Source of the DNA: Patescibacteria group bacterium | GTDB lineage: Bacteria; Patescibacteriota; Microgenomatia; UBA8517 | DNA: 64,000 nucleotides | Direction of reading: 5' to 3' | NCBI GenBank assembly: GCA_018823885.1 | Contig: JAHJHG010000001.1 | Span: 108,645 to 172,644, forward strand | Part shown: positions 28,628 through 32,899 of the stretch, in pieces | Layout: every line of letters starts with the position of its first letter | Numbering within the stretch: the stretch's first letter is position 1 | The notes under the pieces: model-generated | Told to the model about the DNA's origin: nothing | The model's input: only the letters and a program-made list of their open reading frames with translations | Databases searched by the model: none | Made by a program: the position numbers and the translations under genes

Positions 28628-29593
28628 ATGAAAATCGTATTTTTCGGAACACCTGAATATGTCCAGCCTGTTGTTGAAATGCTTCACAAAACTTTCAAGC
28701 CTTCAGGTGATAATAAATCAAGCATTGTCGCTGTCGTTACCCAAAGCCCAAAGCCTGTCGGCAGAAAAAAAATATTATCTCATTCACCAATTGATAAATG
28801 GGCACACAACAAAAATATACAAATCATTAACAAGAGCGATAAGCTTCTTGAATCTGAATTAAAACCCGATATTGGCATTCTTGCCTCTTTCGGCGAAATC
28901 ATTCCAAAAGAAATTTTAAACTATTTTCCTCACGGAATTCTCAATATCCATCCTTCCCTTCTTCCTAAATACAGAGGTGCATCACCAGTCCGGGCAGCAA
29001 TTGCCACGGGTGAAACTGAAACCGGTGTCACCATAATAAAATTGGATGAAAAACTTGATCATGGAAAAATCATTTCTCAATTTAAGGCCGAAATAGAAAA
29101 AGGCGACACGACAAAAACGCTTCGAGAAAGACTTTTCATCCAAGCAGCAGAGGTTCTTGGAACTCTCATTGGTCCTTATTTGGAAGGTAAAGTGAAACCC
29201 AAAATGCAGGACGAGAAAAAAGCAACTTTCACTACCTTAGTGACGAGGAAAGAAGGTTTTATAAAGCCGAAATATATACAAGACGCACTAAATGGAAAAA
29301 GTTTTACGGATAAATGGGATATTCCCTTTATCAAGGTTGGGCCCAAAAAAGATAACTTTAAAGTAACTCCTTCTCCTAAAAGCATTGATTGTTTTATTAG
29401 AGCCATGCATCCCTGGCCGATTGCTTGGACAACAGTGAAAACTAGTTCTAATAAAGAGTCAAGAAGACTAAAGATATCAGAGGCACATTTGTCTGGAAAA
29501 AAGTTGATCCTCGATGAAGTTCAACTTGAAGGCAAAAATCCTGTTTCTTGGAAACAATTTGAAGAAGGTTATCCTACCGTGATATTTTTATAA
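28628..29593 (+). CDS. fmt: methionyl-tRNA formyltransferase
   Basis: MKIVFFGTPE..., NIHPSLLPKYRGASPV. Directly follows def, as in the conserved def-fmt pair. Confidence 0.85.
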   Translation: MKIVFFGTPEYVQPVVEMLHKTFKPSGDNKSSIVAVVTQSPKPVGRKKILSHSPIDKWAHNKNIQIINKSDKLLESELKPDIGILASFGEIIPKEILNYFPHGILNIHPSLLPKYRGASPVRAAIATGETETGVTIIKLDEKLDHGKIISQFKAEIEKGDTTKTLRERLFIQAAEVLGTLIGPYLEGKVKPKMQDEKKATFTTLVTRKEGFIKPKYIQDALNGKSFTDKWDIPFIKVGPKKDNFKVTPSPKSIDCFIRAMHPWPIAWTTVKTSSNKESRRLKISEAHLSGKKLILDEVQLEGKNPVSWKQFEEGYPTVIFL

Positions 29594-29840: not shown

Positions 29841-30533
29841 TTGATTATACTACAAAGACAAAGCTTCACAAAGAGTATGTTAACAATAATTATCTGGATA
29901 CTAGCTTTTATAGTTGCCATAACCATCCACGAAACGGCCCACGCTTGGATGGCGGATAGACTTGGTGACCCAACGCCAAGGCTTATGGGAAGATTATCAC
30001 TAAACCCAATGGTTCACTATGACCCCATTGGAACAACCCTTCTTTTGGTTTTGGTTATCATGAGGTCTATTGGAATTCCAGTAATCCCTTTTGGTTGGGC
30101 AAAGCCTGTTAGGTTCGATCCTTACAATCTTAAAAACCCAAGAAGAGATGCAGCCTTAATTTCGTTGGCAGGACCTTTGTCAAATTTGATCTTGGCAATA
30201 ATATTAGGAATGGTTGTCCGCATAGCATCAACTCCCTTTTCCCCAATTCCTTTTATTGCTGAGTTTCTGTATCCCTTTATCATCCTTAACGTTGTCTTGG
30301 CTATTTTCAACCTTATTCCAATTCACCCCCTTGATGGGGGGAAGATTCTTATAGGTCTTCTTCCTGCAAAGGACGCTTATGAAGCAGATAGGTTTATGAA
30401 TCGTTATGGAATCATTATTTTATTTCTTCTGATATTTCCAACCTTTGGCGGGACTTCTCCTATTTTTATGTTTCTTTCCCCAATCCTGAACTTTATTTTG
30501 GGTATCCTTATCCCCGGAAATCCCGTTATCTAG
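29841..30533 (+). CDS. M50-family membrane metalloprotease (site-2 protease-like)
   Basis: HETAHAWMA HExxH motif in the first TM helix. Multiple TM helices and a downstream ...LDGG... motif. Confidence 0.7.
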   Translation: MIILQRQSFTKSMLTIIIWILAFIVAITIHETAHAWMADRLGDPTPRLMGRLSLNPMVHYDPIGTTLLLVLVIMRSIGIPVIPFGWAKPVRFDPYNLKNPRRDAALISLAGPLSNLILAIILGMVVRIASTPFSPIPFIAEFLYPFIILNVVLAIFNLIPIHPLDGGKILIGLLPAKDAYEADRFMNRYGIIILFLLIFPTFGGTSPIFMFLSPILNFILGILIPGNPVI

Positions 30534-30708
30534 TAATCTTCCGCCAATTGACAAAATCTGGTAGAATATATACGACCCTGCTAAAGGGTGTTTTCGGAAG
30601 AGTTTTTTCCTCATCGAAAAGCACTAAGGGAGGGCATATAGCCTTAGCCCGTGGGCTAGAGCTGAGTCCACCCACCTGGATTTATCCGGGGAAAAATTAA
30701 CTTCCGCT

Positions 30709-30731
30709 GGACCCTCGGCAGGGTCCTTTGG
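30709..30731 (+). terminator. intrinsic terminator-like hairpin (GGACCCT-CGGC-AGGGTCC followed by TTTGG)
   Basis: Perfect 7-bp GC-rich stem with a 4-nt loop and a short T tract. Closes the GC-rich segment downstream of the M50 protease gene. Confidence 0.4.
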
Positions 30732-30756
30732 TTAACTTCAAAATATTCGGATTTTT

Positions 30757-30766
30757 TGGTATAATT
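30757..30766 (+). promoter_or_regulatory. extended -10 promoter (TGGTATAAT) upstream of the tRNA-Thr/tRNA-Tyr pair
   Basis: TGnTATAAT consensus lies about 19 nt upstream of the tRNA-Thr 5' end. Confidence 0.45.
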
Positions 30767-30784
30767 ACGCTCGCAGATATAACA

Positions 30785-30856
30785 CGCCGGCGTAGCTCAG
30801 TGGTAGAGCAACGGTTTTGTAAACCGTAGGTCAGTGGTTCGACCCCACTCGTCGGC
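30785..30856 (+). tRNA. tRNA-Thr (anticodon TGT)
   Basis: Cloverleaf folded by hand: acceptor GCCGGCG/CGTCGGC (one G-U pair), D-arm GCTCAGTGGTAGAGC, anticodon stem ACGGT/ACCGT with loop TTTGTAA, T-arm AGTGG-TTCGACC-CCACT. No encoded CCA. Confidence 0.85.
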
Positions 30857-30881
30857 TCATATTTAATAGATTTGATTTAAT

Positions 30882-30970
30882 TGCTGGGATGGCGGAGTGG
30901 TCAATCGCAACAGTCTGTAAAACTGTCGCCCGAACGGGCTACGTAGGTTCGAATCCTGCTCCCAGCACCA
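30882..30970 (+). tRNA. tRNA-Tyr (anticodon GTA), long variable arm, CCA encoded
   Basis: Acceptor GCTGGGA/TCCCAGC, anticodon stem ACAGT/ACTGT with loop CTGTAAA, variable-arm hairpin GCCCGAACGGGC, T-loop GGTTCGAATCC, 3' ACCA. Confidence 0.85.
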
Positions 30971-30973
30971 CTT

Positions 30974-31864
30974 TTATCTAATAAACTCTGGCTGGGCCCA
31001 TGAAGACATGTAGGTCGAGAGTTCTTCCTCTTTAACCAGCTTTCCGTCTCTATAAGTAAGTTTTATAACTAGACTCTTTCTTGTTTCTTCACTCCACATC
31101 TGATCAAAAACAAAATTACCTAACGAATAATAAACAGGTTTTTCATTTATATACTCCATTCCTTGCACCCAATGCGGTCCGTGGCCAACAACAACATCAG
31201 CCCCTGCCTCAACTAATTTTTTGGCCCATTGTTTTTGAATTTCTGCCGGTTCTTTTCTATATTCTGCTCCCCAGTGAACACTAACTACTAATACATCTGC
31301 CTTACCTACCGACTCCGCAACTAATTTATAATCGTTTTCTTTTGGTATCTTGGATATGAAATCAAATCCAAGAAAGCCATATTTAATACCCTTGCTCTCT
31401 TTTACAACCAATTCTCCCAAGCCTGTTGTTAAAATTTCTTTTTCATCAAGAATCTCAATAGTTTCGGCAAGTCCGCTTTCTCCATAATTTCTTGAGTGGT
31501 TGTTGGCAAGATTAACAATATCAATTCCTGCTGTAACTAATCCTTCCACCATGGCGGGGTCTGCACAAAAAATAAGACTCTCATAACTTCTATGACAATT
31601 TGAAACCATTGGATTCTCTAAATTAACAAAAACAATATCGGCTTCATTTAGTTCATCCGAGACTTTTTCAAAAGGATAGCTGGGATTGCTTAAATCAAGA
31701 CTTTTTGTCATCACCGTTCTTCCCAGCATTACATCTCCCGTTAACATTATTGTTGTTTCAGATCCCTGATTAATTCTGGGGCTGAATTTCAAGGTATAAA
31801 TAAGAAGCATAAAAAATGAGGCTGTTAAGATAAGAAGAAACGTCTGAGATTTATTGCCATTCAC
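30974..31864 (-). CDS. CapA/PgsA-like metallophosphatase (poly-gamma-glutamate capsule synthesis family)
   Basis: N-terminal signal anchor. Calcineurin-like motifs (...LENP...ANNH..., ...GHGPH...). Overall CapA architecture. Confidence 0.75.
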   Translation of the reverse strand: MNGNKSQTFLLILTASFFMLLIYTLKFSPRINQGSETTIMLTGDVMLGRTVMTKSLDLSNPSYPFEKVSDELNEADIVFVNLENPMVSNCHRSYESLIFCADPAMVEGLVTAGIDIVNLANNHSRNYGESGLAETIEILDEKEILTTGLGELVVKESKGIKYGFLGFDFISKIPKENDYKLVAESVGKADVLVVSVHWGAEYRKEPAEIQKQWAKKLVEAGADVVVGHGPHWVQGMEYINEKPVYYSLGNFVFDQMWSEETRKSLVIKLTYRDGKLVKEEELSTYMSSWAQPEFIR

Positions 31865-31910: not shown

Positions 31911-31982
31911 GCCTGGGTAGTTTAGTGGCAAAACAAATCCTTGGTAAGGATTAGAGCGGGGGTTCGATTCCCCCCCCAGGCT
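31911..31982 (+). tRNA. tRNA-Thr (anticodon GGT)
   Basis: Acceptor GCCTGGG/CCCAGGC, anticodon stem AATCC/GGATT with loop TTGGTAA, T-arm GGGGG-TTCGATT-CCCCC. Discriminator T, no encoded CCA. Confidence 0.8.
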
Positions 31983-32022
31983 CAAGGTTGTTTATAAGTT
32001 AAAAAAGTGTAAAATATCACGT

Positions 32023-32196
32023 ATGGCAAAAAAAGGAGCTAGGGAAATTGTCGCTTTAGTTTGTTCCGAGTGTAAAGCGCATAATTATGCCACCACCAGG
32101 AACAAAGTTAATATTGAGAAAAAATTAGAAATTAAGAAATATTGCAAGAACTGCAAAAAAAACACTCTTCATAAGGAAACTACCAAATTAAAATAA
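32023..32196 (+). CDS. rpmG: 50S ribosomal protein L33
   Basis: 57-aa ORF, below the track cutoff and translated by hand: MAKKGAREIVALVCSECKAHNYATTRNKVNIEKKLEIKKYCKNCKKNTLHKETTKLK. C..C...C..C zinc ribbon typical of L33. A leaderless-type promoter TTGTTT-16-TAAAAT lies just upstream. Confidence 0.8.
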   Translation: MAKKGAREIVALVCSECKAHNYATTRNKVNIEKKLEIKKYCKNCKKNTLHKETTKLK

Positions 32197-32239: not shown

Positions 32240-32899
32240 ATGCCCTATTCTCTGGAGTTTAAACAAAAAGCCATTAATCTCCGTAAAAAAGGCTACTCCA
32301 TTAAAGAAGTTTCCGAAATATTAGGAATTGCCAAAAGTACCTCCTCTTTGTGGTTGAGAAATGTCAAACTTTCAAAAAAAGCCCAAGGTCGGCTGGCGAA
32401 AAGGGGCATTTTAGGCCAACACAAGTCAAGAAGAACAAACAGGAAGAAAAGAGAGTTGCGAAAACAAGAATATAAACTTTGGGCAAAGAGCAAACTCAAA
32501 TCTCTCCCCACATCAAAAACAGCTCTTCAAATCTATTGTTCTATCCTCTATTGGGCAGAGGGGGGTAAATTTACCGACAATCATCTTGAATTTACAAACT
32601 CTGACCCGCTAATGATAGGGTTATTCTTGAGACTTTTGCGAAAGGGGTTTGATATTGATAAAAGCAAACTAAGAGCCAATGTTCATATTCATGAATATCA
32701 CGAAGACGCCAAACAAAAAGATTACTGGTCTAAAGCTAGCAACATTCCTCTCAAGCAGTTTAACAAAAGCTATCGTAAACCACACACAAGAAAAAGAATT
32801 AGAAATAATTACCCAGGCTGTGTTAGAATATGCTACTATTCTGCGGATACTGCGAGAAAGATCCAGGCTCTTTATCAAAATTTGACAGATTATATTTAA
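32240..32899 (+). CDS. basic protein with an N-terminal transposase-type HTH (IS3/IS911 OrfA-like HTH_Tnp_1). The remainder is unassigned.
   Basis: N-terminus YSLEFKQKAINLRKKGYSIKEVSEILGIAKSTSSLWLRNVK matches the ys.EfK..av.l....g.sv.eva..lGis..tl..W pattern. Wedged between rpmG and tRNA-Trp. Confidence 0.45.
   Translation: MPYSLEFKQKAINLRKKGYSIKEVSEILGIAKSTSSLWLRNVKLSKKAQGRLAKRGILGQHKSRRTNRKKRELRKQEYKLWAKSKLKSLPTSKTALQIYCSILYWAEGGKFTDNHLEFTNSDPLMIGLFLRLLRKGFDIDKSKLRANVHIHEYHEDAKQKDYWSKASNIPLKQFNKSYRKPHTRKRIRNNYPGCVRICYYSADTARKIQALYQNLTDYI

Follow-up and report, generated by a model that had tools for sequence, protein, structure and literature searches.

A probable compact and divergent 6S RNA gene beside the M50 protease gene of a Woesebacteria genome

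The proteins encoded in the window, by which we mean the whole 64-kb stretch of DNA analysed, have their nearest matches in Candidatus Woesebacteria and other Patescibacteria, and the DNA thus belongs to a Microgenomates (CPR) genome. The window carries an M50 (site-2) protease gene at 29877-30533 (Pfam PF02163; stop codon 30531-30533), followed on the same strand by a GC-rich segment and, 57 nt beyond the segment, by tRNA-Thr(UGU) at 30786 and tRNA-Tyr at 30883. On the protease gene's 5' side the ribosomal protein L28 gene (29569-29820, -) converges on the methionyl-tRNA formyltransferase gene (28628-29593, +) with a 3' overlap of 25 nt, and on its far side a PGA_cap (capsule synthesis) gene (30974-31864, -) lies between tRNA-Tyr (30883-30970) and tRNA-Thr(GGU) (31911-31983), interrupting what is usually a tight tRNA cluster. 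Farther on, an ORF of 219 aa (32240-32899, +) sits between rpmG (32023-32196) and tRNA-Trp (32906) and breaks an otherwise conserved cluster of tRNA, ribosomal protein L33 (rpmG) and tRNA-Trp genes; its N-terminus matches an IS630/homeodomain-like helix-turn-helix (Pfam HTH_Tnp_IS630, 23 bits), and the remainder belongs to no family.

The earlier note had singled out the segment between the protease gene and the tRNAs as GC-rich and highly structured, and both descriptions hold. The G+C content of 30574-30729 is 0.519, compared with 0.383 for the whole window, a value that ranks at the 99.6th percentile among windows of 156 nt, and its minimum free energy is -68.7 kcal/mol, compared with -49.3 +/- 4.25 kcal/mol for 200 dinucleotide shuffles, none of which equalled it (z = -4.56). 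The RNA is encoded once within the window, as judged by a search with the covariance model R1, whose seed consists of the window sequence and three close relatives. We assign the RNA to the + strand because G-U pairs are frequent and because the + strand scores of non-seed members lie far above their - strand scores, as in L042 with 76.8 and 27.1 bits, respectively.

Relatives were sought in 80 loci chosen through an alignment of M50 protease homologs, drawn from species-representative genomes that are mostly Woesebacteria and other Microgenomates. An nhmmer search with the window segment showed that in about 35 of the 80 loci the protease gene is immediately followed by homologous DNA, and R1 gave full-length + strand matches at E values up to 1 in 57 of the 80, its match in the window covering 30574-30729. 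Nearly all of the R1 matches come immediately after the M50 protease gene and share its strand; two weak ones, in L053 (31.2 bits) and L044 (20.2 bits), are about 1 kb farther downstream. The earlier note had associated the segment with the tRNA cluster, a placement that the relatives do not bear out: the RNA keeps its place 3' of the protease gene in L010, L015, L016, L017 and L036, although the tRNAs nearby are encoded on the other strand there, and because of these inversions we take the protease gene, rather than the tRNAs, to be its linked neighbour. The length of the RNA across the family is 140-221 nt (median 153), with almost all of the variation in the apical domain. Large apical insertions occur in L012:3210-3434, L011, L010, L034, L017, L022, L049 and L035, extending the terminal domain to as much as 120 nt (median 48) and the whole RNA to as much as 221 nt and leaving the bubble and closing arm unaltered. 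We also observed that an M50 locus of the Microgenomates type occurs in many records titled 'uncultured Gammaproteobacteria', 'Pseudomonadales', 'Woesearchaeota', 'Bathyarchaeia' and 'Nevskiaceae', among them L008, L011, L013, L018, L060, L066 and L072, and that several of these oddly titled records, for example L008, L011, L018 and L072, contain the RNA match as well; such titles appear unreliable as taxonomy.

The conserved fold is a rod with a large central bubble, in which a closing stem is followed by three more helices, the bubble and a terminal stem-loop (Table 1). It was evaluated on A6, a model-based alignment of the 43 best + strand R1 matches, in which 88.8% of cells pair, compared with 71.6% after column shuffling and 44-58% when the partners are slid by 1-3 columns. 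Compensatory change on both sides was seen in 46 of the 49 pairs among these 43 homologs, one pair of P3 occurring as CG in 14, UA in 9 and GC in 6 members, and the covariation score of 0.442 exceeds the 0.07-0.13 obtained for slid partners. A6 was fitted to the structure, which favours that structure, and it is the slid controls, the variety of pair types and two independent results that agree in support of the fold. From a structure-blind MAFFT alignment of 22 members, RNAalifold found the terminal stem and a stem of 10 bp between the two ends of the RNA, with compensatory changes in 17 of the 25 predicted pairs. When 17 members were folded singly with the stretch from UUCCU to GGGAG held single-stranded, all 17 adopted the same rod, which lay 0-7.9 kcal/mol above the free minimum, and 1-4 kcal/mol above it in most. 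Helices 5-8, which make up the terminal domain, are 85-99% paired in A6, and this domain was also found without structural input. The bubble strands vary little in size, the 5' strand measuring 14-21 nt across the family (median 18; consensus CU[C/G]ACCAAA) and the 3' strand 15-22 nt, and the core columns of CACCCACCUGG, which spans the junction between the terminal stem and the bubble's 3' strand, are identical in 42-43 of the 43 members. Homology search and covariation analysis had both been proposed by the earlier note, and they find the RNA conserved in most related loci with strong covariation.

Table 1. Features of the RNA gene and its flanks in the window; pairing and compensatory change refer to alignment A6.
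Feature	Position	Strand	Remarks
TTGACA box	30548..30553	+	8 nt 5' of the -10 hexamer; conserved, too close for a canonical -35
Extended -10 element TGgTAGAAT	30559..30567	+	TG 30559-30560, TAGAAT 30562-30567; predicted start G30574
6S-like RNA	30574..30725	+	152 nt, first to last base of closing stem; RF00013 match, R1 match, covariation
P1 closing stem, 5' strand GACCCUGCU	30574..30582 with 30717-30725	+	97.2% paired; 9/9 pairs compensatory
P2, AGGGU	30585..30589 with 30711-30715	+	70.9% paired; 5/5 compensatory; weakest helix
P3, CGGAAG	30595..30600 with 30701-30706	+	80.3% paired; 6/6 compensatory
P4, UUUUUC	30604..30609 with 30691-30696 (GAAAAA)	+	88.4% paired; borders central bubble
Central bubble, 5' strand CUCAUCGAAAAGCACUAA	30610..30627	+	18 nt; presumed template strand for product RNA
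Terminal domain	30628..30673	+	GGG-A-GGGC ... GUCC-A-CCC stem, inner stem, apical hairpin UUAGCC-CGUG-GGCUAG
Nearly invariant motif CACCCACCUGG	30669..30679	+	terminal stem into 3' strand of bubble
Central bubble, 3' strand	30674..30690	+	about 17 nt; contains hairpin
Hairpin of bubble 3' strand, CCUGGA-UUUA-UCCGGG	30675..30690 (30675-30680 with 30685-30690)	+	93.5% paired; 5/6 compensatory
3' strands of P4, P3, P2, P1	30691..30725	+	A6 fold
Tail CUUUGG	30726..30731	+	likely termination region; weak in this genome

The local stems that catch the eye in the window sequence fared unequally. As the earlier note had described, a hairpin GGACCCT-CGGC-AGGGTCC followed by TTTGG is present at 30709-30726, where a terminator-like site is also listed (+), and the internal stems GTGTTTTCG...CGAAAAGCAC and TAGCCC-GTGG-GCTA can likewise be read from the sequence; of these, the last is the apical hairpin of the conserved terminal domain. 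As a conserved helix GUGUUUUCG/CGAAAAGCAC was rejected, with 50.7% pairing over 43 homologs, the level of shuffled columns, and slid partners that did no worse. The 3' hairpin GGACCCU/AGGGUCC was rejected on the same grounds, its 54.3% pairing being the same as that of shuffled columns and no better than that of slid partners, as was its mirror image at the 5' end, ACCCU/AGGGU, with 64.6% pairing at shuffle level. It is solely the conservation of the CCC and GGG runs, needed for P1 and P2, that allows these local 5' and 3' hairpins to form; the conserved pairing joins the 5' end of the RNA to its 3' end (30574-30582 with 30717-30725).

The RNA forms a transcription unit of its own: in most of the 43 loci a -10 box precedes P1 and a U-rich tail follows it. 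Exactly 6 nt separate a TAnAAT hexamer from the first base of P1 in 30 of the 43 loci, and in 28 of the 43 the TG extension is present. At least 5 T occur within 10 nt after P1 in 34 of the 43 orthologs, compared with 17% at random positions. The TTGACA box that the earlier note took as the start of the segment is present, one base before the 30549 given there; the 8 nt between it and the -10 box are too few for a canonical -35 element. An exact TTGAC 7-8 nt from the -10 box recurs in 18 of the 43 orthologous loci, which is about one helical turn nearer than a sigma-70 -35 element, and the canonical spacer of 17 nt is found in 6 of the 43, in which the -10 element reads TATTnT. As a general promoter type TTGAC-N6-9-TANAAT shows no enrichment in the window, with 3 matches and 1.2 expected. 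Upstream, the protease stop codon lies about 15 nt from the TTGACA box and there is no terminator between that stop codon and the RNA promoter, so that read-through from the protease gene is also possible. Just 5' of tRNA-Thr is a further promoter-like site, 30737-30765 (+), in which TTCAAA is followed after 17 nt by TATAAT with a TG extension, and similar CTTCAAA...TGnTATAAT-like sequences recur 5' of tRNAs in L006, L009 and L025.

At curated thresholds, Rfam finds four tRNAs and nothing else in the window, and tmRNA or tRNA identity for the segment is excluded by ARAGORN and Rfam. The Rfam scan that the earlier note had suggested, run at permissive thresholds over 30400-30900, aligned 30575-30725 (+) to positions 1-187 of the 187-position 6S model RF00013, with 25.0 bits and E = 0.0036 for a 501-nt search, compared with a gathering threshold of 46.4 bits; it is the only meaningful non-tRNA family matched there. 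The earlier note had found no match to 6S by eye, and yet 6S is the best identity to emerge. RF00013 was also matched over its full length, at the same position of the locus, in 10 of 25 further loci scanned permissively, with 28.7-43.5 bits (L042 43.5, L054 40.4, L027 38.7, L018 36.2, L047 36.2, L029 34.3, L006 33.5, L028 33.2, L016 29.3 and L009 28.7), the local E-value in L042 being 9.4e-8, and no other Rfam family recurs among these orthologs. The gathering threshold was reached by none of the 20 loci scanned at threshold, which returned tRNAs only. As all copies tested score below 46.4 bits, Rfam-based annotation would miss the whole group, even though the E-values of the window and of L042 are significant.

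Part of this Rfam score is generic, because any long rod-like RNA scores against a rod-like model. The alignment places CACCCACCUGGA on caCCCACCUggaA, GGGAG on GGGag and CCUCAUCGAAAA on CuGAgCCgAaaa of the RF00013 consensus with high posterior probability, so that the near-invariant columns of the family, CACCCACCUGGA, GGGAG and CCUCAUCGAAAA, fall on the most conserved Rfam consensus positions. CACCCACCUGG coincides with caCCCACCUgg, the stretch of the Rfam 6S consensus that is most strongly conserved, and the 5' strand of the bubble aligns to CuGAgCCgAaa. In the reverse direction, R1 missed ssrS in the E. coli locus L086 and reciprocal detection failed; R1, whose four seed sequences amount to an effective number of 1.09, has too narrow a base for a reciprocal test. 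Masking the presumed product-RNA template in silico gave no consistent rearrangement helix across 14 members. A metagenome scan for GGGAG-N35-65-CACCCACCTGG returned mostly chance matches, 5 of 80 loci matching R1, and yielded two RNAs above the RF00013 threshold, L138:987-1148 (50.6 bits) and L113:801-959 (46.9 bits).

We propose that the GC-rich segment 30574-30725 (+) is very probably a 6S RNA gene of the ssrS type, compact and divergent, in a host belonging to Candidatus Woesebacteria (Microgenomates, CPR). Judged by its sequence, the RNA is best filed as a divergent 6S homolog, which by the Rfam rule is not annotated as 6S; the gene is of an ordinary kind, too divergent for standard annotation to recognise. 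The most serious competitor is a structured small RNA particular to the Microgenomates lineage that serves another function, such as protein sponging or base-pairing regulation, and whose likeness to 6S RNA is convergent or very distant. Such an RNA would be in keeping with RF00013 scores that all lie below the curated threshold, with the failure of the narrow R1 to detect E. coli 6S and with the lack of a predicted product-RNA rearrangement helix. We nonetheless hold it to be unlikely, as eleven independent full-length matches point to RF00013 and to no other family, the shared motifs occupy equivalent structural positions, the threshold-passing L138 and L113 carry the same landmarks in the same order, and bubble strands of 14-21 and 15-22 nt suit a 6S RNA.

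The remaining readings would make the segment an appendage of one of its neighbours. One of them takes it for the terminator or 3' untranslated region of the M50 protease mRNA, kept because it stabilises or ends that transcript. This would agree with the position of the RNA, which in almost every locus having it comes immediately after the protease gene and in the same orientation, and with the short distance of about 15 nt between stop codon and TTGACA with no terminator between, which makes read-through likely. We judge this highly improbable, since a conserved TGnTAnAAT between the stop codon and the RNA is so placed that in 30 of the 43 loci transcription would start exactly where the closing stem begins, the local hairpin 30709-30726 is conserved no more than chance, and a covarying rod of 150 nt with an invariant single-stranded motif far exceeds the needs of a terminator; the segment is not merely the protease 3' end that the earlier note had allowed it might be. 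A leader or processing element of the tRNA-Thr/tRNA-Tyr operon is less credible still. Its proximity to tRNA-Thr on the same strand in the window speaks for it, but the tRNAs have their own promoter-like site at 30737-30765, 34 of the 43 loci have a U-rich tail after the RNA, and the five relatives with opposite-strand tRNAs, in which the RNA stays by the protease gene, effectively refute it. The 6S RNA gene remains our preferred reading. For this gene the boundaries, the conserved promoter, the covarying fold and the similarity in sequence and structure to Rfam 6S are established, and the proposal of a structured small non-coding RNA made in the earlier note is borne out by conservation, an own promoter, the U-rich tail and covariation.

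By analogy with characterised 6S RNAs, a model for the action of this RNA can be put forward, in which polymerase binding, product-RNA synthesis and the physiological role are all inferred. Transcription would initiate at G30574 under the RNA's own extended -10 promoter and stop just after the closing stem. The rod would then mimic an open promoter and act as a decoy, lodging in the active-site cleft of RNA polymerase when this is bound to the housekeeping sigma factor, and damping transcription globally in starved or slowed cells. In this arrangement the terminal stem may stand in for upstream promoter DNA and P4 to P1 for downstream DNA, and the invariant ACCCACCU on the 3' strand of the bubble may take the position of the non-template -10 element, which would account for its invariance. 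Once nucleotides are back, the polymerase would copy the 5' strand of the bubble and the adjoining U-rich strand of P4 (around 30604-30620), and the short product RNA would unzip the 6S-like RNA and free the polymerase. The sizes of the bubble strands, 14-21 and 15-22 nt, are the architecture that a 6S RNA requires.

6S RNA is a well-known regulator that plugs RNA polymerase. Finding one here is unsurprising, as a textbook regulator of this kind is expected in nearly all bacteria, and the Woesebacteria 6S-like RNA reveals no new mechanism. The novelty is modest and consists of a compact, divergent Microgenomates 6S subfamily that is linked to the M50 gene and preceded by a TTGAC box only 7-8 nt from the -10 element in 18 of the 43 loci. 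Whether this is the first recognised member of a compact 6S subfamily shared by Microgenomates (CPR), systematically missed by Rfam, fixed beside the M50 site-2 protease gene and served by an atypical promoter, we would put at a little short of an even chance; in the open-access literature we found no paper linking 6S RNA to CPR/Patescibacteria, and an earlier description may exist. If it is true, ultra-small, host-dependent bacteria with minimal regulatory repertoires keep a 6S-type global control of RNA polymerase, and control of the polymerase by an RNA decoy would be shown to persist even in genomes of about 1 Mb. Recognising the family would furthermore fill an annotation gap in a very large uncultured group, and its sequences could widen the Rfam RF00013 seed.

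According to the published description (PMC8414754), 6S RNA is present in nearly all bacteria and is rod-shaped, about 160-200 nt long, with long helical arms on either side of an enlarged internal loop; it binds the housekeeping form of the RNA polymerase holoenzyme, and short product RNAs are copied from it. The RNA of the window matches this published shape and at 152 nt is slightly below the published length. Aquifex aeolicus provides a precedent for the retention of 6S RNA in a highly condensed genome (PMC8414754), and its compact type of 6S RNA may resemble that of the window further. The nearest parallels above the Rfam threshold are the 6S RNAs of L138 and L113, which come from soil or other metagenomes and share with the window RNA, in the same order, the landmarks GACCCYG close to the 5' end, GGGAG, CACCCACCUGG and CRGGGU close to the 3' end, the CCAGG hairpin that follows CACCCACCUGG and a similar length of 159-162 nt. 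Unlike the window RNA they have a higher G+C content and extra bases outside the closing stem, and the narrow R1 did not detect them at E <= 0.01. In comparison with the 6S RNA of E. coli and Bacillus subtilis (SsrS; RF00013), the present family is shorter, scores 3-21 bits under the Rfam threshold and has the odd TTGAC box 7-8 nt from the -10 element, and polymerase binding and a product RNA are here presumed; the gene adjoins that of the M50 protease, whereas in E. coli the order is zapA-ssrS-fau. What the two have in common is the rod itself, with its closing stem, large bubble, terminal stem-loop and hairpin in the 3' strand of the bubble, the GGGAG and CCCACCU motifs that flank the bubble, the CUGA.CC-like motif that begins its 5' strand, and a single gene with its own sigma-70-type promoter.
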